A stretch of DNA of 64,000 bases from an uncultured Candidatus Poseidoniales archaeon (GTDB lineage Archaea > Thermoplasmatota > Poseidoniia > Poseidoniales > Thalassarchaeaceae), in the NCBI GenBank assembly GCA_964585295.1, contig CAZPCY010000004.1, positions 90,786 through 154,785 of the forward strand, given 5' to 3'. The position numbers were made by a program, and so were the translations under genes. Every line of letters starts with the position of its first letter. Positions within the stretch are counted from its first letter, which is position 1. Below the pieces are notes generated by a model that worked only from the letters and a program-made list of their open reading frames with translations, ran no database searches and was not told the origin of the DNA. Shown piece by piece: positions 2,949-15,085 of this stretch.

Positions 2949-3281
2949 TCAACGATCGATCATGATGATCGCATCGGTGGGACATGCTAGAACACAGAGT
3001 CGACAACCAGTGCATGGGTCGCGAAGCACCTTCGCCTTCCTGTTCACTTCGATGTCCATAATCGGGCTAGCGAGAGGGGTATCGTAGAGCTCAATGGCGT
3101 CGTCGTCGCATGCCAATGTACATTGATCACAACCGATACAGAGTTCCTCCTTGACCCAAGCCACGGTCCCCTCCCCACCTTTGAGAGATTCGAGTTCCTC
3201 TGCCTTGGCGGCATTCAGTGCCGTTCGGATACGACGCTGTTCGGCGGCCCTTCGGATTGCCACGTCCTCCTTCGACGTCAT
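2949..3281 (-). CDS. 2x[4Fe-4S] ferredoxin-domain protein with helical N-terminal extension
   Basis: Two cluster motifs: CIGCDQCTLAC and CTGCRLCVLACP. Confidence 0.75.
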   Translation of the reverse strand: MTSKEDVAIRRAAEQRRIRTALNAAKAEELESLKGGEGTVAWVKEELCIGCDQCTLACDDDAIELYDTPLASPIMDIEVNRKAKVLRDPCTGCRLCVLACPTDAIIMIDR

Positions 3282-3423
3282 CGCACCTTCGAATGGTGCG
3301 CTTCTCTCAAGCCTACCGCTTTGGGGACATCGCGAGCGATTGGGAATTTCCTCTAGCCAGAGCCATTGTGTTCAATCCGGTCGGTCACCTAGACTAGAAT
3401 CCGATTCGTCCGCTGCTTGATAG

Positions 3424-3813
3424 ATGCTCGACTCGATTCCCATTCGATTCAGCCGAACCATCAAGGAGGAATCGGTGGGGTGGGGGTACATGGTTGGTGA
3501 GGACATACACGAAGATGACCGAGCCGGCAGCCTGAATGAGTTCATCGATGGAAAGGTGGAGGCGATTCTTGAGCCGTCCTCATGGCAAGATGACCGAATG
3601 GCGATATTCTTCGCATCGATCGGCCCCTTGATCTGGATGATTATGGCCCTCCAGTCATTCGATTTCGCAGCCATCGCAATCGTCTGCCACGCTCAGGTCG
3701 GCTTTTTTCTCTGTCTCATCGCTCTAGGATATCGTCGTCCACGTGCGTTCAAGGGGTCGTTAATCGGCATAGCCATCTGCGCTGTGCTCAGCTCATTTTC
3801 CTGGATTCTGTGA
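3424..3813 (+). CDS. Hypothetical membrane protein
   Basis: 129-aa ORF with three hydrophobic segments in its C-terminal half. No recognisable motif. Confidence 0.35.
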   Translation: MLDSIPIRFSRTIKEESVGWGYMVGEDIHEDDRAGSLNEFIDGKVEAILEPSSWQDDRMAIFFASIGPLIWMIMALQSFDFAAIAIVCHAQVGFFLCLIALGYRRPRAFKGSLIGIAICAVLSSFSWIL

Positions 3814-3874
3814 TAGGAAGGTCCTCTTCTTAGCGGACTAGAAAGCGAAACGACTGTCCGGCGACGCTGCAGGA

Positions 3875-6751
3875 TTAAGTCTGCGCCGCTTCAACCGGAT
3901 TCGCGCCGCCCGCATCGGTCAGCATCGATCCCTCATCCAGTGCAGCTCTCCGCTCTTCGACCTGTCTTGCTAGGAAGCTTACGACGTCGAGAATCTCAAA
4001 GTCATGCTTCGGGTCGCCTTCGAACTTCAGGCATTCGAAGTGACTAACGCACTTAGGACAGGATGTGAGCATAATCTCGGCACCTGTCGAGCGCACCTCT
4101 TCGAACCGCTGGATTCGAAGTGCACGGCTGTTCTCATTGCATCCCATCATGCTGGAGACGCCGCAGCAGAGAGCGTCCTCACCGTGGTGCTCCATCTCGA
4201 CGAGATCGACGTTCTCGACGTTCCGGACGAGGTCGCGCGGCTGCTCGTACATGTTCATCTGACGCCCGAGCCGGCACGGATCGTGGTAGGTGACCTTGGT
4301 TCCCTCCGCGGCTTCCAATCGGAAGTCGTGGCCGGATTCCAGAAGATACTCCGCCGTGTGCATGACCTTCATGTCATCCAGTTCGTAGTCCATTGCGAAG
4401 GTACGGAAGCACTCTGCGCATGATGTGACCAAGGTATCGATGCCACTCTTGGTGAGTTTCTTCTGGTTGTACGACTTCAGCTTCTCAAAGACCTCGGTCA
4501 TTCCTTGCCACTTCTGATCGTGACCGCAACACTTCAGGAAATCTCGACCGAGGTAGGCGACGTCGAGCCCGGCTTCTTCGAAGAGTGTGAAGGCAGCCGT
4601 CGTAGTGTCGCCGAGATCCATAGTTCCCTCGTTGACATGACTGAAGACCATCTCCTGATCGATGTAATCGACGCATCCAGGATAGTAACCGACCGTCGAA
4701 TCAATCGGATACTCGTCGATTGGGATGAAGAGGCCGTCGGCCTCCTCCTCCGCCTCGGCAGCGAGAACGGCCTGCAGGACCGTGTGGGGAATCTCAGCGG
4801 CGGGCGGTCCACCGACGATCAGGTTTCTGCGGATGTCTACGTAGGAGTCGTAGTCGACTAACTGTGGGCAAGCGTTCGTGCAGGCGGAGCAAGTCAGGCA
4901 TGTGTACATCGGTACTCCGTCATCTTCGTTGTTCCATGTGTTGTAGATGATGTTGAGCTTGTCACCCGCATTGAAGAGTCTGACAGGACACGCGTCATCG
5001 CACAGGTCACAGCCGTAGCACTTGTTCATCTCCCATTCGTAACCCCGCGCCATCCTTCGCATCAGCATGTAGACCAACGCACCGACGCCCAAGCAAGGTG
5101 CGAATAGGGAGTAGGTCAACTTCGCATCGAGGCTCTTGGGGTTCTTCTGGTAGGTCGGATTGTCGACCGTATATGATGAGAGTGAAGCGGTTGTTATCCC
5201 AGCGGCAGCCATCGCAGTAGCATCGCTTCGATCGATTGCCATCCCGTCAGCGCCGATGAGGAGCGGCTGGAAGGCAATCACCTGAATGTCGCTCGGAACA
5301 TACATCGTATCGTTGATGCCGGTGGCAGTGATTGAGTAATCGACCGTGTAGGTCGCACCGGAGGCGAGATACACCATATCGACTCCGCACTCGGAGAGCG
5401 ATGCGACGGTCGCTCCAGATGAGTCCTTGACTGTGAGAGTGGTGTCTATCATACCGACTCCACGCTCGCTCGTTCTCGCGTTGCAGGCGATGTCGGCCGG
5501 CACACTCGCGACACCAAGGTCCTCGACGGTCATAGTTGCAGAGTGTGTCGTAGAGACGGCAGCTCCGGATGCGAGTCCGCTTAGGTTGAAATCCGCCGTG
5601 ACGGTGTTGCGACCGCTAGCGGGGTCGCCGTGAGCATTCTCTCCAGCGTAGTCGATGACGGTCGCCTGCGTTGGTTGGGTTATCCCCCAATTCAGCCAAT
5701 GCGTAGCGGGTATCAGACACCAATCCTCCCGGAGTTGATCGCCGCTGAGGAAATCCTTGTGCTGCCAAGAATCAGCTCCGCTAGAATCCGTGTATGGGAG
5801 GCAATGCTGTTCCATGTGTTCCCAATGGTGGTTCTCGCCGAGATGGATGACGGTGTCGATTGGCTGGCCCCGTAGGCCGTCCAACTCCTCCACCTCATCC
5901 ATGGCGCCGAGTCCGCCGAGATCCCAGAACCCGTTCTCGTAGATTGGCCAAGTGAAGGCGCACAGTAGGGTGGCGGCCAGAATCGAGCCAATCGCGAGAT
6001 TCCTGCTGCGCTCAGGCGTGACTAGTGCTCCTTGCGCTCGGACGAGCATCCATCTGCCACCGTAGTAGAAAAGCGCGAAGAGGAATATCCCGGTCAACAC
6101 CCATGGTATCGAGTTGAACACCTCCGCCAGCCAAGGTTGTCTGACTCCGCAAGAGAGTCCGGCATGCGAATTCAACTGGCAGAAGTCGGTCCGGTTCTTG
6201 CCGTATAGGTCTAGGAAGATGTTGATTGAGTAGACCGAGATGAACCAGACATGGGCGAGGTAGACCGCCCCGGCAGTGGCGAACCAAGGGTCTTCGACCC
6301 CCCGCTTCTCTCGTCCGCCAAGGAAGGGGGGGAGGGCGAGGATTCCGACTGGAATTCCCGTCAGGACGCTCCCCCACCAAGCTGCGTTCCAAGAGATGAC
6401 CGGGGTGCCGAAGAACGCTCCAATCGCTTCGGGGAGCGGGATGTCGAATTGCGGCAGGTATTCGCCCCAGCGTAGATAGCCGTACGAGAAAAGGACATAC
6501 CAGTCGGGGAAGACGAATCCTGCTTGGGCGAACGGATCAGCTGCTGAGTGGAGAGGTGGGGGAATCAGCCAGCAGTAGAAAGCCAGAACCATCAGGATGG
6601 CTGCTAGGATGATGGTGTCCCTGAGCGCCTCTTGTGGCCAGAAAGGCGCACCTAGATGCAGCCTCTTCCGCTCCTTCTCAGCAACTTGCAACTTGTCGCG
6701 CTCCGTTACGTACGTGTCGGCTATTCGACCAAATCTCTCAAGGATGCCCAA
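3875..6751 (-). CDS. Fusion protein: cytochrome b C-terminal/subunit-IV-like membrane domain, extracytoplasmic S/T/A-rich domain, TM helix, then HdrD/GlpC-type Fe-S module (2x[4Fe-4S] plus two CCG domains)
   Basis: N-terminal ADPFAQAGFVFPDWYVLFSYGYLRW is the PEWY-box equivalent of cytochrome b / PetD. Multiple TM helices follow. The C-terminal part carries CYGCDLCDDACP, CLTCSACTNACP, YYPGC...KCCGHD, and YHDPC...LCCGVS...SCPKC. Confidence 0.75.
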   Translation of the reverse strand: MGILERFGRIADTYVTERDKLQVAEKERKRLHLGAPFWPQEALRDTIILAAILMVLAFYCWLIPPPLHSAADPFAQAGFVFPDWYVLFSYGYLRWGEYLPQFDIPLPEAIGAFFGTPVISWNAAWWGSVLTGIPVGILALPPFLGGREKRGVEDPWFATAGAVYLAHVWFISVYSINIFLDLYGKNRTDFCQLNSHAGLSCGVRQPWLAEVFNSIPWVLTGIFLFALFYYGGRWMLVRAQGALVTPERSRNLAIGSILAATLLCAFTWPIYENGFWDLGGLGAMDEVEELDGLRGQPIDTVIHLGENHHWEHMEQHCLPYTDSSGADSWQHKDFLSGDQLREDWCLIPATHWLNWGITQPTQATVIDYAGENAHGDPASGRNTVTADFNLSGLASGAAVSTTHSATMTVEDLGVASVPADIACNARTSERGVGMIDTTLTVKDSSGATVASLSECGVDMVYLASGATYTVDYSITATGINDTMYVPSDIQVIAFQPLLIGADGMAIDRSDATAMAAAGITTASLSSYTVDNPTYQKNPKSLDAKLTYSLFAPCLGVGALVYMLMRRMARGYEWEMNKCYGCDLCDDACPVRLFNAGDKLNIIYNTWNNEDDGVPMYTCLTCSACTNACPQLVDYDSYVDIRRNLIVGGPPAAEIPHTVLQAVLAAEAEEEADGLFIPIDEYPIDSTVGYYPGCVDYIDQEMVFSHVNEGTMDLGDTTTAAFTLFEEAGLDVAYLGRDFLKCCGHDQKWQGMTEVFEKLKSYNQKKLTKSGIDTLVTSCAECFRTFAMDYELDDMKVMHTAEYLLESGHDFRLEAAEGTKVTYHDPCRLGRQMNMYEQPRDLVRNVENVDLVEMEHHGEDALCCGVSSMMGCNENSRALRIQRFEEVRSTGAEIMLTSCPKCVSHFECLKFEGDPKHDFEILDVVSFLARQVEERRAALDEGSMLTDAGGANPVEAAQT

Positions 6752-6769
6752 CTTTCTTCACCCCCTCGA

Positions 6770-7633
6770 TCAATGTGGCTCCGCTATGCCCTGCACCCAG
6801 ACGATGAACAGATGGATGATGATGAGTAGTGTGACGACGACGGGTAGCACGAATACATGGATGAAGTACATCCTAGTGACTGTCTGTCCGGAGAGGCTCG
6901 AGCCAGCGAACATCGCGGTGGCTATCCACTTCCCTACCAAGGGCGTCGAATTGGCCATGTTGATCCCAATGGTAGCAGCTCCGAACGCCAAGGCATCCCA
7001 AGGAAGCAAGTATCCCGAGTAGCCGAAGAAGATTGTGAAGAACATCAGGGCGACTCCGATTAGCCAGTTCAACTCGCGAGGATTCCGGTAGGCTCCGGTG
7101 AAGTACACCCGGCACATGTGGAGGAATACCGCGGCGACCATGAAGTGGGTCGTCCAATGGTGGATGGACCGCATGATGTAGCCGAACGGCAGTTGCGTCA
7201 TGATGTACTCCATGCTGGAGTAGGCGGGCGTCGGATCACCATCGCCACCTGGGACGTAGTAGAATCCGAGGATGGTGCCGGTAATCACTAGGATGATGAA
7301 GGCTAGGAACGAGATTCCTCCTAGGCAGTAAAGTGGATACCAGTACCAGATTATCCGCAACTTGTACTTCTCCGCGTGGGTCAGCGGCATCTGACGGTGC
7401 ATGCTCGTGTATGCCTCACGACTCATCGCCCAGTAGTCTTGCACCCGGAAGCGTGTGTCCATCCATGAGAAGACCCAGAGGAAGGATTTCTCCAACAGCC
7501 CCATGTTGCCGCTGGACTCGACTGCTCGGAGTATCTCCTTGCGAGGCATCTCCTCGCGCTCCTTGCGGAGCGTCATCGCGATTAGCACCAGCACGAAGAC
7601 GAGGAAGAGCCAGAGCAGCGTGAACTCGATCAT
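6770..7633 (-). CDS. Cytochrome b, N-terminal (b6-like) di-heme subunit
   Basis: MRSIHHWTTHFMVAAVFLHMCRVYFTGAYRNPRELNW and FIHVFVLPVVVTLLIIIHLF give two His pairs with 13 and 14 intervening residues (b6-type spacing). GYLLPWDALAFGAATIG is the cd-loop signature. Confidence 0.88.
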   Translation of the reverse strand: MIEFTLLWLFLVFVLVLIAMTLRKEREEMPRKEILRAVESSGNMGLLEKSFLWVFSWMDTRFRVQDYWAMSREAYTSMHRQMPLTHAEKYKLRIIWYWYPLYCLGGISFLAFIILVITGTILGFYYVPGGDGDPTPAYSSMEYIMTQLPFGYIMRSIHHWTTHFMVAAVFLHMCRVYFTGAYRNPRELNWLIGVALMFFTIFFGYSGYLLPWDALAFGAATIGINMANSTPLVGKWIATAMFAGSSLSGQTVTRMYFIHVFVLPVVVTLLIIIHLFIVWVQGIAEPH

Positions 7634-7644
7634 CTTCTATCTCC

Positions 7645-8502
7645 TCAGTCGCAGAACGTGTACCAGTCAGCGAATTCGTCGAGAGCCTCGATCGTGCCGC
7701 CATTGACGGTGAAGGGGATTAGGGGCATGCCGACCGGAGCCGGACCTCCAGTCAATTTGATACCGATATAGTCGAACTCCTTCCCCGTGCTCCGGTTCCG
7801 ATTCCGATTCATCTCGATTACAGTGGGGTCGTATCTGCTCGAGTGGCATATGCAGAACAACTTGTTGCCTCCAGAGTCGACGCCTCCCGGAAGCCATGTG
7901 TCGGCCGTGAAGTCATTGGCCACTAATTGCCAGCCTGGGATGCAGCAGAGGTGAGGGCAGCGACTGAAGACAATCATCAGGTCGTCATGCATGGCGAGCG
8001 AGGCATATGCCGGATCTTCGTTGACCTCCCCCCCCCATCCGATCACCTTGCCGGTCGCATCCTGCCCCTCCATGTACTGGAACCTAGGGTTGCCCTCGAC
8101 CGTAGGGGTGCCCGCGTTCTTTGAGTCGGGGATGTGCAGGACGTTCACAGGCAGCCCACTCCAGACCCCCTGCGCTCCAGCCATACCAGTATCCGACTTC
8201 CCAGCCTCAGTCACGAAGTCTGGTTTCGTCATCGTCTGCATATGCATGGATCCGTACCAGACGCTGTCCTCTTGTCCCTTCGGTACCCAGTATCTGACGG
8301 CGTTGTCAGTACCGGAGCCGCTGGATGAGCCCATCAGCATCGAGGCGAAGCCAATGGTGCCTAGACACGCGGTGGTGATGACTCCGGCCGCGCTGTTGAA
8401 GGAGTGGCGAACGAAGTCGCGGCGATCGATGAGTCTTTTTCCACCCGCTGTAACCTCCTCCTCGGCCCCAGGAGCCGGGCGAAGTCGGAAATTGCGATTC
8501 AT
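7645..8502 (-). CDS. Rieske [2Fe-2S] protein with twin-arginine signal
   Basis: Rieske boxes CPHLCC and CICHSSRYD; Tat-like RRDFVRHSF followed by a hydrophobic helix. Start chosen at the internal ATG (MNRNFRL), 10 nt after the upstream gene's stop. The listed ORF extends to 8583. Confidence 0.85.
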   Translation of the reverse strand: MNRNFRLRPAPGAEEEVTAGGKRLIDRRDFVRHSFNSAAGVITTACLGTIGFASMLMGSSSGSGTDNAVRYWVPKGQEDSVWYGSMHMQTMTKPDFVTEAGKSDTGMAGAQGVWSGLPVNVLHIPDSKNAGTPTVEGNPRFQYMEGQDATGKVIGWGGEVNEDPAYASLAMHDDLMIVFSRCPHLCCIPGWQLVANDFTADTWLPGGVDSGGNKLFCICHSSRYDPTVIEMNRNRNRSTGKEFDYIGIKLTGGPAPVGMPLIPFTVNGGTIEALDEFADWYTFCD

Positions 8503-8512
8503 CCAGTTCACC

Positions 8513-8962
8513 TCAACTCTTGTAATCGTGCCAACCCATCGTGTCCTTAGGTGGGATGAATTTGTTGCGGCGATGCTTGACAATCACCAAGTCGGGCATG
8601 ACGAACCGAAGGTGAAGAATTCCTAGGATGATGACGGTTAGAAGGGTCATCGCGAGGTGGAAGGATAGTTGCTGCTGGTCCCAGCCGTTCATCAGGCCAT
8701 AAGAGAGGGTGAAAGCCCAGTAGAGGGTGAAGAACAGGCCCCAAAGAGCGAATGCCATGACGAGCCAAGATGCTCCGCTGGGACGTATGCTGGCGCGGAC
8801 GATGGTTCCCGGTGCGACCTCGTTGAACACCCCGTGGTCAATCGCCTGCTCGTACTGCTCCTCGGAGAGACTAACCCCTTCGAGCGCTGCCCTCGCATCC
8901 TCAACGCTGACTTCTCCGCGCTTGACCTCGCGCAGGAGTTGGAGGATGACATCGTCCTTCAC
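8513..8962 (-). CDS. Small membrane protein of the Rieske/cyt b operon, with a SHOCT-like N-terminal helix pair
   Basis: GTG start in a GTGA overlap with the upstream stop. N-terminus LLREVKRGEVSVEDARAALEGV, then 2-3 TM helices. Confidence 0.5.
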   Translation of the reverse strand: MKDDVILQLLREVKRGEVSVEDARAALEGVSLSEEQYEQAIDHGVFNEVAPGTIVRASIRPSGASWLVMAFALWGLFFTLYWAFTLSYGLMNGWDQQQLSFHLAMTLLTVIILGILHLRFVMPDLVIVKHRRNKFIPPKDTMGWHDYKS

Positions 8963-9768
8963 AACTGGTCCCCCCTTCGCAGGTGCTTGATCCTTAGGCG
9001 GAGAAGGTTGCTTCTGCCCTCATAGTGTCGTGAGAATCCGTAGCGTAGGAAGAATCCGCAGAAGAGCAACACTAGGATGACGGCGCCGAAGCCGAGCAGG
9101 CCGAGCCAGTGCGCCCGGAACGCCGCTCCCATGTGGTGCAAGTCGACATGCCCGCTCTCCGGTGCGGGCGGCTCGACATTACCATCACCAGCGAAGAGCA
9201 AGCGGTGGTTGCCATCGTCGACACCTTCGACCATGACTCCGGTGAGCCGGTTCCAAGCGTCACCCTGGTTCCCATCAGCACCGTTGACTGAGTTGCCTAC
9301 GAGTTGGATGGAGATGCTGCCTGAACCTTCTGCCGGGGCAGTCCAGATGACGTTCCAAGTGCGGTCAGCGACCTTCGCTCCGGCAGTGGTGTGACTCAGA
9401 GTCGTTAGGTCCGATTTCCAGTTCTGCACATCGGATTCGGATTCGACACCGGCAGCGAGTGCACCATCGCTGACCTTCATCGAGAATCCCCCGGTGTTGG
9501 ACGCAGAGTCGATGTCCGGGCCGCCTATGATTTGGATGGTCCACGCGTACTCGGATCCGGGCTCGTAGATAGTGGGGACTCCATCGAGTAGGAGTTGCAC
9601 CTCATTCGATGGTTCTGGAGCGTGGCATGTGCATCCGGCAATGGAGACATCACCGCTCCCTTCGTCACCACCGATTCCCGATGGAAGAGCAGTGACTAGG
9701 CCGGATGCCAGCGAGGCTGTGAACAGCAGCATTGACGCGGCCACGAATCGTCCTCTTCGAGCCCTCAT
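8959..9768 (-). CDS. Secreted, C-terminally membrane-anchored beta-rich protein; first gene of the Rieske/cyt b operon
   Basis: Signal-like N-terminus MRARRGRFVAASMLLFTASLASG; C-terminal TM WLGLLGFGAVILVLLFCGFFL plus a basic tail. Single GCTCH motif; GNSVNGADGNQGDAWN segment. Confidence 0.55.
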   Translation of the reverse strand: MRARRGRFVAASMLLFTASLASGLVTALPSGIGGDEGSGDVSIAGCTCHAPEPSNEVQLLLDGVPTIYEPGSEYAWTIQIIGGPDIDSASNTGGFSMKVSDGALAAGVESESDVQNWKSDLTTLSHTTAGAKVADRTWNVIWTAPAEGSGSISIQLVGNSVNGADGNQGDAWNRLTGVMVEGVDDGNHRLLFAGDGNVEPPAPESGHVDLHHMGAAFRAHWLGLLGFGAVILVLLFCGFFLRYGFSRHYEGRSNLLRLRIKHLRRGDQL

Positions 9769-13151: not shown

Positions 13152-13640
13152 ATGGCTGGGGGAGGCGAGGCACCTTCTGTCGAGCCGTGGGACCTCAGCG
13201 CGCTCGTCGGGGCGATCCTCCTCACTTCGACGATACTCATGCTCACTTGGCCGCCTAGCCATGATGTCGGATTGACCGGGGATCGAATCGGTCTCACCGA
13301 GGTTGGCGTGGGCGCTCTAGGTTCAGCGGATTCGATTGAGGTGACGCTTCGGAACGCCACCGCATGCGAGGTCGAGAACTCTACCTGTACAGGAGCTGTG
13401 ATACATGTTTCATCTCCTAATGGGGATGAGATTACGCAGTTCCGCCTCTCGGATGGAGAATCCCACACGACGGATAGGATGACGAACGGTCCCGTGACGG
13501 TCGAAGCCTCTGGTGAGGGCCAGTATAGAATCACGGTGAAGGTTCATCGACAACTGCCGTTGGAATTCGTTCCCGCGATGCTCGGAATCGTGCTTCTGGC
13601 ATGGGGAGAATGGCGTAGACGTCAAGGCCCATCGCCATGA
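13152..13640 (+). CDS. Hypothetical protein anchored by N- and C-terminal TM helices
   Basis: Internal ATG at 13152 chosen to avoid overlapping the Pop5 gene. TM helices LSALVGAILLTSTILML and FVPAMLGIVLLAW. Confidence 0.4.
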   Translation: MAGGGEAPSVEPWDLSALVGAILLTSTILMLTWPPSHDVGLTGDRIGLTEVGVGALGSADSIEVTLRNATACEVENSTCTGAVIHVSSPNGDEITQFRLSDGESHTTDRMTNGPVTVEASGEGQYRITVKVHRQLPLEFVPAMLGIVLLAWGEWRRRQGPSP

Positions 13641-15085
13641 TCCATATCCAGTTGGGTTTCTGAGCGAACGAACGCTGAATCCGCCACCATCAGAGCTCCC
13701 TCTTCGCTGATTCCTACCGGTCGCTCGTCAGCCTCGAATCCAAGTGAAGCGCCACCCCTAGAGAATCTCGCTGAGAAGAGGGACCACCATGCTCTCGATC
13801 TAGTGACGACATCGCTCCGCGGAAGCCTCGGGTGTGCCTCCAATCTACCCCCTAGACAGGCGGCAAGTGCAGTGAAGATGGTGTTGGCATCGGAACCAAG
13901 CCCGATATCATCGAATCCAGCCACCCGTTCTCCGTCCTGGATCCTTCCGCGACCGTTGATCCCGACTCCTAGGTCGAAGGTCGTTGATTCTCCAAATGTC
14001 CGACCCCTCAACAGGATTCCACCCAATTTTCCGACGTCTTCCACCATGATGTCGTTCGGCCATTTCAGTTGCACCCCCATTCTGGAGACTCGGATGCCTC
14101 CCGACCAAGAAAGGAGTGGAGGAACTTGCTGCAATCTCGAGGCGATTGCATCAGCGACTGCTAGCCCAGCCTCCAACTGCATACCGCCCCCACTATGCAT
14201 GATGTTACCGTCACGATTGGAGACCCTCCAGGTCGCGGTTAGATCGCCCTCCTCGCTATTCCAGATTCTTCCTCTCCTACCTTGGCCACGATCCTGCATC
14301 CTAGCGATTACGGCAGAACCTGTTGCAGCCTCATCAGGCATATCCTCCATCGTACTGGCGGAGCGTTCGAGGCGTACTGGCTCAATACGGCCCCAGCCCC
14401 GCCAAAGGGCGAGTGCTACCAACCTCTCGTCCCCGAACATGGTGCTGGCGAGAGGTCGGATCGACCACCCAGACTCGATCCACGATTCGAGGGTCGGACC
14501 CGAACGCTCCCCCAACCTATGGATGATGATCACGACTCCGTCATCCGCGAGGATGGAGGATTCTTCGATGAAGATGCGGAGCAACCCCGCCCACCCTCCT
14601 CCTTCCTCGATGTCAGTCAGGGCTCCCTCCTCAAGCGGCCCAAGCCTCTGCTCATCTAGGGTGACCGGATCCAGGTAGGGTGGGTTCCAGCATATGATGT
14701 CGAACGCACCCGGACCTGCCCACGCTCCATCATCCGATTCTTCGGCTAGACCACCTTCCCAGAAACTCGTTCTCTCCGAAACTCCCTGTTCCTCTGCTAA
14801 CCCCCTAGCCACTGCGATTGCGAGCGGGTGGACATCGCACCCATCAACATTCCAACCGCGGAGTGCGGCAGAGACTGATACCACTCCAGTTCCACAACCA
14901 ATCTCGAGCATCCTACCTGGTGGTCCACAGATTCGCATCAAGGCTAGGTCTAGAAGCGCCGAGTCCTCTCGAGGTGGATACACCGTGGGCGGTACGGAAA
15001 ACTGCCATTCCTTCCCTCGGCCATCGAACCAAATGTGTGCGGCGGCTGCCCCCCTACTCCTGGCCGCCTCTTCTTCTGCATCCAC
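13622..15085 (-). CDS. Fusion: class I SAM methyltransferase (PrmC/Mtq2-like, NPPY) plus biotin-protein ligase (BirA catalytic domain)
   Basis: N-terminal half has LEIGCGTGVVS (motif I) and ICWNPPYLD (motif IV). C-terminal half has GQGRRGRIWNSEEGDL and LKWPNDIMV, both BPL signatures. Confidence 0.7.
   Translation of the reverse strand: MDAEEEAARSRGAAAAHIWFDGRGKEWQFSVPPTVYPPREDSALLDLALMRICGPPGRMLEIGCGTGVVSVSAALRGWNVDGCDVHPLAIAVARGLAEEQGVSERTSFWEGGLAEESDDGAWAGPGAFDIICWNPPYLDPVTLDEQRLGPLEEGALTDIEEGGGWAGLLRIFIEESSILADDGVVIIIHRLGERSGPTLESWIESGWSIRPLASTMFGDERLVALALWRGWGRIEPVRLERSASTMEDMPDEAATGSAVIARMQDRGQGRRGRIWNSEEGDLTATWRVSNRDGNIMHSGGGMQLEAGLAVADAIASRLQQVPPLLSWSGGIRVSRMGVQLKWPNDIMVEDVGKLGGILLRGRTFGESTTFDLGVGINGRGRIQDGERVAGFDDIGLGSDANTIFTALAACLGGRLEAHPRLPRSDVVTRSRAWWSLFSARFSRGGASLGFEADERPVGISEEGALMVADSAFVRSETQLDMDHGDGP

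Follow-up and report, generated by a model that had tools for sequence, protein, structure and literature searches.

Marine Group II archaea are known to carry cytochrome b and Rieske genes but no canonical bc1 complex, their complex III has been described as "MGII specific" (MGII, Marine Group II), and the presence of a lone RnfB in their genomes has been found puzzling (Tully 2019). In Ca. Angelarchaeales, hdrD-like and rnfB-like genes have been noted in one sentence as "unusual genes proximal" to complex III, with the suggestion that ferredoxin might enter there (Diamond et al. 2022, PMC9038741). Here, we analyze a stretch of 64,000 nt (hereafter, the window) of contig CAZPCY010000004.1 from a Candidatus Poseidoniales archaeon (Thalassarchaeaceae; assembly GCA_964585295.1), in which an operon for a Rieske/cytochrome b6 complex ends in an open reading frame (ORF) of 958 aa that joins a subunit IV (PetD)-like membrane part to an iron-sulfur (Fe-S) module of the heterodisulfide reductase (Hdr) subunit D type. 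As judged from its domains, the fusion is a recombination of two known modules, the core of a Q-cycle Rieske/cytochrome b6 complex and an Fe-S arm of the HdrD/EtfD type, and such a recombination is unexpected for Rieske/cytochrome b complexes. The organisms concerned are uncultured and rank with the most numerous archaea in surface seawater.

The sequence-only reading of the window from which this work set out knew of no description of the architecture. For the fusion itself we likewise found no description, either of PetD::HdrD or of its presence in Marine Group II, in full-text literature searches within whose reach subscription-only papers did not fall, whereas the genes of a split form of the locus had been noted, and ferredoxin entry proposed, in the sentence on Ca. 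Angelarchaeales cited above. The text of that paper (PMC9038741) makes no mention of a PetD/Fe-S fusion, of a full PetD::HdrD fusion or of the occurrence of the latter in Marine Group II, Bathyarchaeia or Geothermarchaeales, and cytochrome b, Rieske and CCG domains are all absent from a 2024 survey of archaeal fusion proteins. Public annotations of the homologues read "hypothetical", "4Fe-4S dicluster domain-containing" or "heterodisulfide reductase subunit D".

Conservation of the Fused Gene

A search of 5.8 billion proteins returned 456 homologues of the 958-aa protein. The best 120 of these 456 are all 923–958 aa long, with 97–100% coverage and 67–79% identity, and come from five assembly sources, namely ENA, JGI, NCBI, Logan (assemblies of sequencing runs) and Tara, the named ones being Thalassarchaeaceae or "Euryarchaeota" (Marine Group II). 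An identical protein (P0098; P and L numbers denote the proteins and loci compared here) is found on 80 contigs, and the full-length fusion overall on hundreds of independent Marine Group II contigs. These data bear directly on the most trivial explanation of the ORF, that is, an assembly error, frameshift or missed stop joining a petD-like and an hdrD-like gene. The existence of a split form in other Thermoplasmata and the blindness of Pfam to the PetD domain of the window protein would be in keeping with such an error. However, the length and coverage of the best homologues in assemblies from all five sources, the 80 identical copies, the short fused forms in other phyla, and the position of the join in the split form, which lies after the Fe-S domain and not at the PetD/Fe-S boundary, leave it a probability close to nil. 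The frameshift or missed stop against which the sequence-only reading had cautioned is thus excluded, and the artifact is already refuted by conservation across assemblies.

The same fused domain order is also found elsewhere. An exhaustive search (representatives at 50% identity) yielded shorter fusions of 543–789 aa, without the two extra helices and the outside domain of the window protein, and, in a scan covering every GTDB species with one genome each, full-length short fusions turned up in Thermoplasmata, Bathyarchaeia, Geothermarchaeales and unclassified archaeal metagenome-assembled genomes. Cytochrome b6 is encoded immediately upstream of the fusion in 12 of the 12 loci from outside Marine Group II that have a full-length match, and tblastn over these 12 loci detected a Rieske gene in three (L006, L007 and L010) and a DUF7318-like gene in seven. 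In the split form, a gene for PetD, extra helices and the Fe-S dicluster (442–452 aa) is followed by a CCG gene (324–330 aa), a ferredoxin gene and a gene for a 107-aa protein, and two such loci (L083 and L084) adjoin a V/A-ATPase. We consider the association functional because it has been kept through both fusion and fission, and its conservation argues strongly for a physical as well as a functional link of the b-heme subunit set to the Fe-S arm. The genome scan also returned loci from Methanoperedens and ANME-2, which were set aside as relatives of the CCG part only, the genes being soluble HdrB/D-like ones in HdrA/MvhD clusters with no cytochrome b nearby.

Domain Composition and Topology of the Fusion Protein

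The PetD-like start of the 958-aa ORF had been proposed from the letters of the sequence, and this holds at the level of the family, while Pfam Cytochrom_B_C gives no match in the window protein even at E=10. A single-sequence search of the PDB with the fusion protein gave only E=0.012 to b6f subunit IV. In contrast, a profile from nine fusion N-termini (the first 146–185 residues of each of nine family members) matches bc1 cytochrome b over its C-terminal half (2.4e-14) and b6f subunit IV (5.6e-10), the short-form proteins P0127 and P0128 pass the PF00032 gathering cutoff (48.7 and 32.6 bits vs 20.7), and the PDWY motif with its flanking residues is invariant over the fusion family. On account of the profile matches, the PF00032 matches in relatives and the invariant PDWY, we take the fusion N-terminus to be homologous to subunit IV. 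No operon examined has a separate petD gene, and the fusion protein is the only subunit IV in these operons.

At the other end of the protein, the two 4Fe-4S motifs and two CCG domains are recovered as first read, with two CxxCxxCxxxCP motifs, CYGCDLCDDACP and CLTCSACTNACP, a Pfam Fer4 dicluster at residues 574–630, and two stretches of PF02754 (CCG) at 1.1e-22. All eight dicluster cysteines are invariant in the family alignment. Both CX(n)CCX(n)CXXC motifs are complete in the window protein (C693, C741, C742, C778 and C781; C826, C862, C863, C898 and C901), and the same ten-cysteine set is common to the Marine Group II homologues. Over the fusion family the second CCG motif is invariant, and the first is degenerate in several lines, reading KCVGHD in L001–L005 and P0128 and KCTGHD in P0132, and having lost the final cysteine in P0159 as in the split CCG proteins. 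The closest solved relative in sequence is Mycobacterium smegmatis EtfD (9ojn; phmmer 2.6e-22), and Foldseek with the AlphaFold2 (AF2) model of the module matched EtfD at 1.4e-13, LutA at 4.8e-10 and HdrB (5odc_B) at 8.4e-8 (target TM-score 0.58). No NCBIfam equivalog reaches its cutoff on the fusion protein, the best being TfrB with 110 bits vs 385. A NarI/HdrE-type cytochrome b, the usual partner of such a module according to the sequence-only reading, was not encountered, the membrane partner being cytochrome b6/PetD. Between the last membrane helix and the first cluster lies a linker of only ~12 residues, GYEx(E)xNxC, in which G570, Y571, E574, N576 and C578 are invariant. It is chiefly this short invariant linker that, at the level of sequence, suggests that the first cluster is held at the membrane face near hemes bH and ci.

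Hydropathy predicts six membrane segments in the fusion protein, and five crossings counted from the PEWY loop on the positive side would leave the domain of 271 residues outside the cell, with the Fe-S/CCG module on the cytoplasmic side. The counts of Lys plus Arg fit this topology, with 8, 3 and 3 in the segments predicted to lie inside, against 1 in the PDWY loop, and a positively charged RRMAR directly follows the last helix. All cluster-binding cysteines fall in the predicted inside domain, the predicted outside loops hold two and four cysteines, and no Tat (twin-arginine translocation) signal was found in the fusion protein. The short forms have three helices from PDWY to the first cluster, which is the same parity as in the window protein, and the last helix of the window protein aligns with their fourth helix. 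The parity is based on crude hydropathy and is clear in the window protein and most short forms, being ambiguous in P0133, P0159 and the split forms. Hydropathy and charge distribution thus agree with the earlier placement of the CCG module, which we predict to be cytoplasmic, and of the S/T/A-rich insert, which we predict to be external.

The two extra helices and the external domain of ~270 residues are confined to the Marine Group II form and are missing in the short forms of other lineages. The insert domain (residues 273–543) is rich in Ala, Thr, Gly, Asp and Ser and has four cysteines. AF2 assigns a predicted local distance difference test (pLDDT) score of 70–89 to about residues 370–500, all strands, with a beta-sandwich core. 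Foldseek returned nothing beyond generic beta-sandwich matches, which point to neither a redox cofactor nor any other function.

Cytochrome b6 and the Rieske Protein

The di-heme cytochrome b with b6-type histidine spacing that had been read from gene 4 (Table 1) is borne out by matches to Pfam Cytochrome_B (PF00033) at 3.5e-42 and to solved cytochrome b6 in the PDB at 3e-43, with all four histidines aligned and the helix D pair at the 14-residue spacing of the b6 type, IHVFVLPVVVTLLIIIH. Cys103 (LYCLGG) aligns with Cys35 of cytochrome b6 (FYCLGG), the CxGG ligand of heme ci/cn, such that gene 4 is, by these alignments, a di-heme four-helix cytochrome of the b6 type with a predicted heme ci-binding cysteine. 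CxGG is regarded as the mark of heme cn and is found in the short cytochromes b of cyanobacteria and Firmicutes but not in the haloarchaeal short form (Dibrova et al. 2017), the haloarchaeal cytochrome b having likewise been described without the heme ci cysteine (Baymann et al. 2012, PMC3509893). Against this background, a split cytochrome b that is archaeal and yet carries the cysteine is already unusual. The cysteine is kept in all Thermoplasmata-type loci, and is replaced by Tyr in L006 (597-1298; YYLGG) and L007 (1292-1990; YYLGS), which are of the Bathyarchaeia/Geothermarchaeales. Gene 4 also has an extension of ~75 residues before the b6 core, with an extra N-terminal membrane helix at residues 1–25 by hydropathy, and at the P0124 locus the cytochrome b is 758 aa long with a Big_5 domain.

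In gene 3, the Tat motif RRDFV, box I (CPHLCC) and box II (CICHSSRY) can be read directly, and the protein aligns over both boxes with the iron-sulfur subunit of a solved bc1 complex (8smr_C, E=0.019). Its profile score is below threshold (TIGR01416 at 4.6e-8, 33 bits vs a cutoff of 97), and a Pfam scan of the window proteins gave no Rieske match even at E=10. Orthologues are kept upstream of cytochrome b in relatives. Taken together, the motifs and the alignment identify gene 3 as a Tat-exported Rieske [2Fe-2S] protein, as first proposed. In L006 and L007, box II is of the low-potential type (CRCHDGIV and CRCHDGIF).

Small Subunits and Redox Partners

Gene 1 matches the NCBIfam family NF041895 ("choice-of-anchor V") at 1.5e-25. 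A sequence search of the PDB gave no match, and the AF2 model (pLDDT 70.6) has the reeler domain of F-spondin as its top Foldseek match (2e-6). The GCTCH motif, H126, the membrane helix and the tail are invariant in 24 homologues. Two split loci (L081, 4555-5202, and L083, 4473-5117) have a cupredoxin (C..PGH..GM) at the position of gene 1, with a C-terminal membrane anchor homologous to that of gene 1. Because homologous anchors carry a Reeler head in one case and a cupredoxin head in the other, a swap of head domains on a conserved anchor appears to have taken place. The product of gene 1 is a candidate for interaction with the Rieske protein, as its partner or as the acceptor of its electrons. 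Gene 2 matches Pfam DUF7318 below the cutoff (2.4e-4), and its orthologues at the same position in L081–L085 carry DUF7318 matches; it is probably a small subunit of the complex.

On the cytoplasmic side, the gene following the fusion on the same strand encodes a 110-aa ferredoxin with a below-cutoff match to rnfB (TIGR01944, 9.2e-13). A second Marine Group II locus, L085, has the gene order of the window, with a 110-aa ferredoxin 79% identical to that of the window and, after it, a 120-aa two-helix protein 56% identical to the 113-aa protein of the window. The latter also matches weakly (1e-4) the 107-aa gene after the ferredoxin in L083 and is possibly a further small subunit, the eighth component of the system. 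A ferredoxin is likewise encoded downstream in L081, L083, L008 and the P0124 locus, with polyferredoxins in L008 and the P0124 locus. Loci outside Marine Group II have HdrA-like flavoproteins downstream of the fusion (L002–L007 and L012), a FrhB/FdhB-like protein (L007), HdrC-like and HdrB-like proteins (L012), and MvhD/FlpD-containing proteins (L009 and, by N-terminal sequence, L011), which points to a link between a Rieske/cytochrome b complex and a module of flavin-based bifurcation. No HdrA was found in the Marine Group II loci, where the 110-aa ferredoxin is the probable cytoplasmic redox partner. The partners predicted for the cytoplasmic arm are consistently low-potential carriers.

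Direction of Electron Flow

The b-heme chain of the complex had been proposed to be wired to the cytoplasmic CCG module, and the conserved association, fused or split, together with the predicted topology, supports this part of the proposal; quinol-driven reduction of a disulfide, which had been proposed with it, we consider the less likely use of such a wire. Our own tentative preference, held with slightly less than even confidence, is for a Q cycle assisted by ferredoxin or a thiol, in which electrons from reduced ferredoxin (or a dithiol) would pass through the arm to heme ci/bH and on to Qi. The last membrane helix of the lengthened PetD would end in the cytoplasm, to be followed some 12 residues on by the HdrD-like module, with two cubane [4Fe-4S] clusters first and two CCG-type clusters after them. 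The Fe-S arm would then serve as an electron wire between the hemes of the n-side (bH and the covalently bound heme ci) and a low-potential partner in the cytoplasm, most likely the co-encoded 2x[4Fe-4S] ferredoxin in Marine Group II and a flavo-iron-sulfur protein of the HdrA/MvhD/FrhB type elsewhere. The likeliest direction would be inward, from reduced ferredoxin, or possibly a dithiol, through the CCG and Fe-S clusters to ci/bH and to quinone at the Qi site, while the high-potential branch to the terminal oxidase would run as usual, via Qo, the Rieske protein and the extracellular protein on its anchor. In this way, complex III would double as a ferredoxin:quinone entry point. Ferredoxin has a potential of about -400 mV or lower, and passing its electrons to the b hemes or quinone is downhill, the reverse being steeply uphill.

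We favor the inward direction because EtfD is an input wire, because the first CCG motif can degenerate, because the partners are low-potential carriers and because the hosts are aerobic. For the split locus, entry of ferredoxin was also proposed independently (Diamond et al. 2022, PMC9038741). In EtfD, the cubane cluster homologous to the first cluster of the fusion protein lies ~7 Å from heme b, the clusters are shielded, noncatalytic relays from electron transfer flavoprotein (ETF) to heme b and on to menaquinone, and a Cys-Thr change in the first CCG motif goes with a linear [3Fe-4S] cluster (Courbon et al. 2026, PMC13083937). Obligate aerobic heterotrophy has been described for Marine Group II archaea (Tully 2019), and likewise for Angelarchaeales (Diamond et al. 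2022, PMC9038741).

Several observations weigh against this assignment. The CCG motifs of the Marine Group II proteins keep all ten cysteines of the Hdr type, with CAEC in place of the CPHC of EtfD, and may thus form a catalytic thiol/disulfide site in this lineage. The Fe-S/CCG arm occurs both with and without the heme ci cysteine, such that heme ci is not essential to the link, and Arg207 of cytochrome b6, near heme cn, aligns with Trp in gene 4 (PDB alignment), making the state of the Qi site uncertain. The ferredoxin gene of the window is separated from the fusion gene by 593 nt, and tblastn did not detect a ferredoxin in several loci. The AF2 model of the 958-aa protein, calculated from a 23-row alignment, is confident only in the HdrD-like module and the middle domain, with pLDDT 57 and a predicted TM-score (pTM) of 0.38 overall and pLDDT <50 in the membrane part. 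Finally, the operon pairs a Rieske box II of the high-potential type (CICHSSRY) with a PDWY Qo motif. Ser and Tyr in box II are the high-potential signature (Baymann et al. 2012, PMC3509893), and PDWY has been found only alongside Rieske proteins of low or mid potential (Kao & Hunte 2014, PMC4122944), such that this pairing is unusual.

The complete CCG motifs are also where the opposite direction of flow finds its first support. In that case, quinol would be oxidized at Qo, with one electron going to the Rieske protein and oxidase and the other via bL, bH (and ci) and the Fe-S arm to a cytoplasmic disulfide, of low molecular weight or in a protein, that would be reduced at the CCG site, instead of or besides Qi. 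Both CX(n)CCX(n)CXXC motifs of the Marine Group II proteins are as complete as in catalytic HdrB/HdrD, the module matches the HdrB fold (TM-score 0.58), and the order of membrane part, two [4Fe-4S] clusters and CCG domains follows HdrDE, which passes electrons from the membrane on to the disulfide. Bifurcation at Qo would supply the low-potential electron, and in the window a gene for glutamate-cysteine ligase (GshA; Pfam 4e-82) lies ~500 nt from the ferredoxin gene. However, L001–L005, P0128, P0132, P0159 and the split CCG proteins keep the architecture in spite of a degenerate first CCG motif, and the partners that recur beside the fusion are ferredoxins and HdrA-type proteins. Genes related to thiols show no such conservation around the fusion in the loci examined, GshA itself being missing from L085 and the other loci. 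Moreover, the hosts are aerobes, in which known CCG proteins (EtfD, GlcF, GlpC, LutA and SdhE) act on the input side. On this balance we regard the export of electrons to a disulfide as unlikely.

Less likely still is that PetD merely tethers an independent HdrD/GlpC/LutA-like arm, which would pass electrons to quinone directly or to a soluble HdrA-type enzyme with no exchange with hemes b or ci. GlpC, GlcF, LutA and SdhE do work at the membrane with no cytochrome b partner, versions of the complex without the heme ci cysteine exist, and complete HdrABC-like gene sets follow the fusion in L012. However, the fusion is always to the subunit that contributes to the n-side face by bH/ci, and always via the very short invariant linker; the gene stands directly downstream of cytochrome b6 in the loci examined, and the HdrDE/EtfD design, which is homologous, has the first cluster in contact with the heme. 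The fused protein must, furthermore, sit inside the complex, because the operons examined have no separate petD gene. We therefore rate a mere anchor as distinctly improbable.

A broader reading, which we consider doubtful, would turn complex III into a junction through which the quinone pool and the low-potential pool of the cytoplasm exchange electrons both ways, in either of two forms that share this assessment. In the first, the fusion would fix covalently a route from ferredoxin via heme ci to quinone, that is, a ferredoxin-assisted Q cycle, and would be a natural form of the route proposed for cyclic flow through the chloroplast b6f complex. In the second, flow would be reversed, with a quinol bifurcation at Qo, paid for by O2, pushing electrons from the b hemes into an Hdr-type site; in the relatives with HdrA, these electrons would go onward to a flavin-based module, and quinone-based and flavin-based bifurcation would be joined in one complex.

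The locus would account for two published oddities, in that the missing subunit IV is found inside a gene annotated as 4Fe-4S/HdrD and the orphan RnfB-like ferredoxin is a conserved neighbor of it; from its below-threshold rnfB match, we infer that the lone RnfB of Tully is the ferredoxin of this cluster. The fusion is also a natural construct in which to study the entry or exit of electrons on the cytoplasmic side via heme ci in a b6f-type complex, a question shared with cyclic photosynthetic flow, and it bears on the reoxidation of ferredoxin in aerobic archaea that rely on 2-oxoacid:ferredoxin oxidoreductases.

Operon Layout and Gene Neighborhood

The coordinates of the genes and domains are given in Table 1. 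Direct reading of the sequence from 9768 to 3875 on the minus strand reproduces in full the layout first described, that is, five co-directional genes with a GTGA overlap (8959-8962, the stop of gene 1 overlapping the start of gene 2) and gaps of 10, 11 and 18 nt. The start of the Rieske gene was taken as the ATG at 8502, the mechanical ORF listing beginning at a TTG at 8583. The operon contains no gene for a c-type cytochrome (f or c1) as the Rieske acceptor. G+C is even along the region at 55–59%, and the window outside the operon contains housekeeping genes only.

Table 1. Coordinates of the genes and domains of the Rieske/cytochrome b6 operon in the window and of downstream genes in related loci
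Feature	Coordinates	Strand	Remarks
Gene 1, secreted protein, 269 aa	8959..9768	-	N-terminal signal/anchor, Reeler-fold head, C-terminal membrane helix and tail
Gene 2, 149 aa, GTG start	8513..8962	-	two membrane helices, DUF7318-like
Gene 3, Rieske [2Fe-2S] protein	7645..8502	-	ATG at 8502, 10-nt gap before it
Gene 4, cytochrome b6-type, 287 aa	6770..7633	-	11-nt gap before it
Gene 5, 958-aa fusion ORF	3875..6751	-	18-nt gap after cytochrome b6
Fusion residues 1-185, PetD/subunit IV domain, helices E-G, PDWY Qo motif	6197..6751	-	
Fusion residues 186-272, two extra membrane helices, only in Marine Group II form	5936..6196	-	hydropathy, alignment
Fusion residues 273-543, predicted extracellular domain specific to Marine Group II	5123..5935	-	composition, topology
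Fusion residues 544-566, last membrane helix, predicted to return the chain to the cytoplasm	5054..5122	-	hydropathy, RRMAR
Fusion residues 567-645, invariant linker and HdrC-like 2x[4Fe-4S] domain	4817..5053	-	Pfam Fer4_8, Fer4_9, Fer4_10
Fusion residues 646-958, HdrB-like double CCG domain	3875..4816	-	PF02754
110-aa 2x[4Fe-4S] ferredoxin, "RnfB-like"	2949..3281	-	Pfam Fer4_21 at 5.5e-13
113-aa protein, two membrane helices	2558..2899	-	3' of ferredoxin
Downstream flavo/Fe-S genes in related loci	L002 6110-8730; L006 3024-4691; L007 3683-7869; L009 9785-11320; L012 8708-13154		

The spacer between the fusion gene and the ferredoxin gene (3282-3874) holds a 129-aa, membrane-protein-like ORF on the plus strand (3424-3813), which has no Pfam match and no counterpart in L085, an unrelated 82-aa ORF being called there. 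The GshA gene lies at 1184-2452 on the plus strand, opposite to the ferredoxin gene, and hints at a thiol of the gamma-glutamylcysteine type in the host archaeon; its adjacency was considered as a clue to a thiol substrate and rejected because it does not recur in the syntenic locus or elsewhere. About 4 kb from the operon, at 13622-15085 on the minus strand, is a gene with a methyltransferase and a ligase-type BPL_LplA_LipB domain, the latter assignment being taken from the syntenic 456-aa gene in L085, and the P0124 locus has two LplA-type lipoate ligase genes near the fusion gene. Hdr-like systems of sulfur oxidizers use lipoate-binding proteins, and the presence of lipoate ligase genes near fusion loci may be a coincidence.

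Comparison with Known Systems

The complex of the window resembles the b6f complex and the b6c-type complexes of Firmicutes and heliobacteria in having separate genes for a four-helix cytochrome b6 and subunit IV, four histidines with the 14-residue spacing in helix D, a CxGG motif aligned with Cys35 of b6, a Qo motif of the PEWY type (here PDWY) and a Tat-exported Rieske protein. Unlike these complexes, its operon has no cytochrome f or c1, its subunit IV carries extra helices and a predicted cytoplasmic 2x[4Fe-4S]/2xCCG module of ~390 residues, and there are extra small subunits (the DUF7318-like and the 113-aa protein), with an extracellular partner of the Reeler fold, replaced by a cupredoxin in relatives.

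With HdrDE and DsrMK-type complexes it shares the joining of a di-heme membrane cytochrome b to a cytoplasmic protein with 2x[4Fe-4S] and 2xCCG, although here the membrane partner is Rieske/cytochrome b6/PetD and the hosts are neither methanogens nor sulfate reducers. EtfD (Rv0338c; 9ojn; PMC13083937) likewise combines membrane helices, 2x[4Fe-4S] and 2xCCG in one polypeptide, and serves an aerobe as a wire that feeds electrons to quinone. However, its membrane part is NarI-like with one modeled heme b, whereas that of the window protein is PetD-like, and EtfD has TCTGDS and CPHC, the His of which ligates the second cluster, where the window protein has KCCGHD and CAEC. By these motifs, the window protein is not a member of the EtfD family and would be an EtfD-style wire at best.

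Among bacteria, the "PDWF-FeS" clade of cytochromes b (PMC4122944) is similar in that a bc-type cytochrome b is fused to 4Fe-4S/MvhD or ferredoxin/flavin domains, and differs in having no Rieske protein in the cluster and no reported CCG domains. QmoABC also binds an Hdr-type cytochrome b to cytoplasmic Fe-S/flavin modules, Qmo using an HdrE-like cytochrome, and the HdrA-like partners resemble those encoded downstream of the fusion in L002–L012.

The closest relatives in layout are archaeal. The haloarchaeal halocyanin-Rieske/cytochrome b cluster (Baymann et al. 2012, PMC3509893) also has a split cytochrome b, its second subunit having an eighth helix that ends in the cytoplasm, as we predict for the last helix of the window fusion. 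It uses a blue-copper protein for cytochrome c, as do the Thermoplasmata loci L081 and L083, and includes a DUF7318-type small protein. Unlike the window locus, its cytochrome b is without the heme ci cysteine, and no Fe-S/CCG extension or hdrD-like gene has been reported for it. The complex III locus of Ca. Angelarchaeales (PMC9038741), with blue copper, Rieske, cytochrome b, hdrD-like and rnfB-like genes near a V/A-ATPase, matches L083 and L084 and is very probably the same system in its split form.

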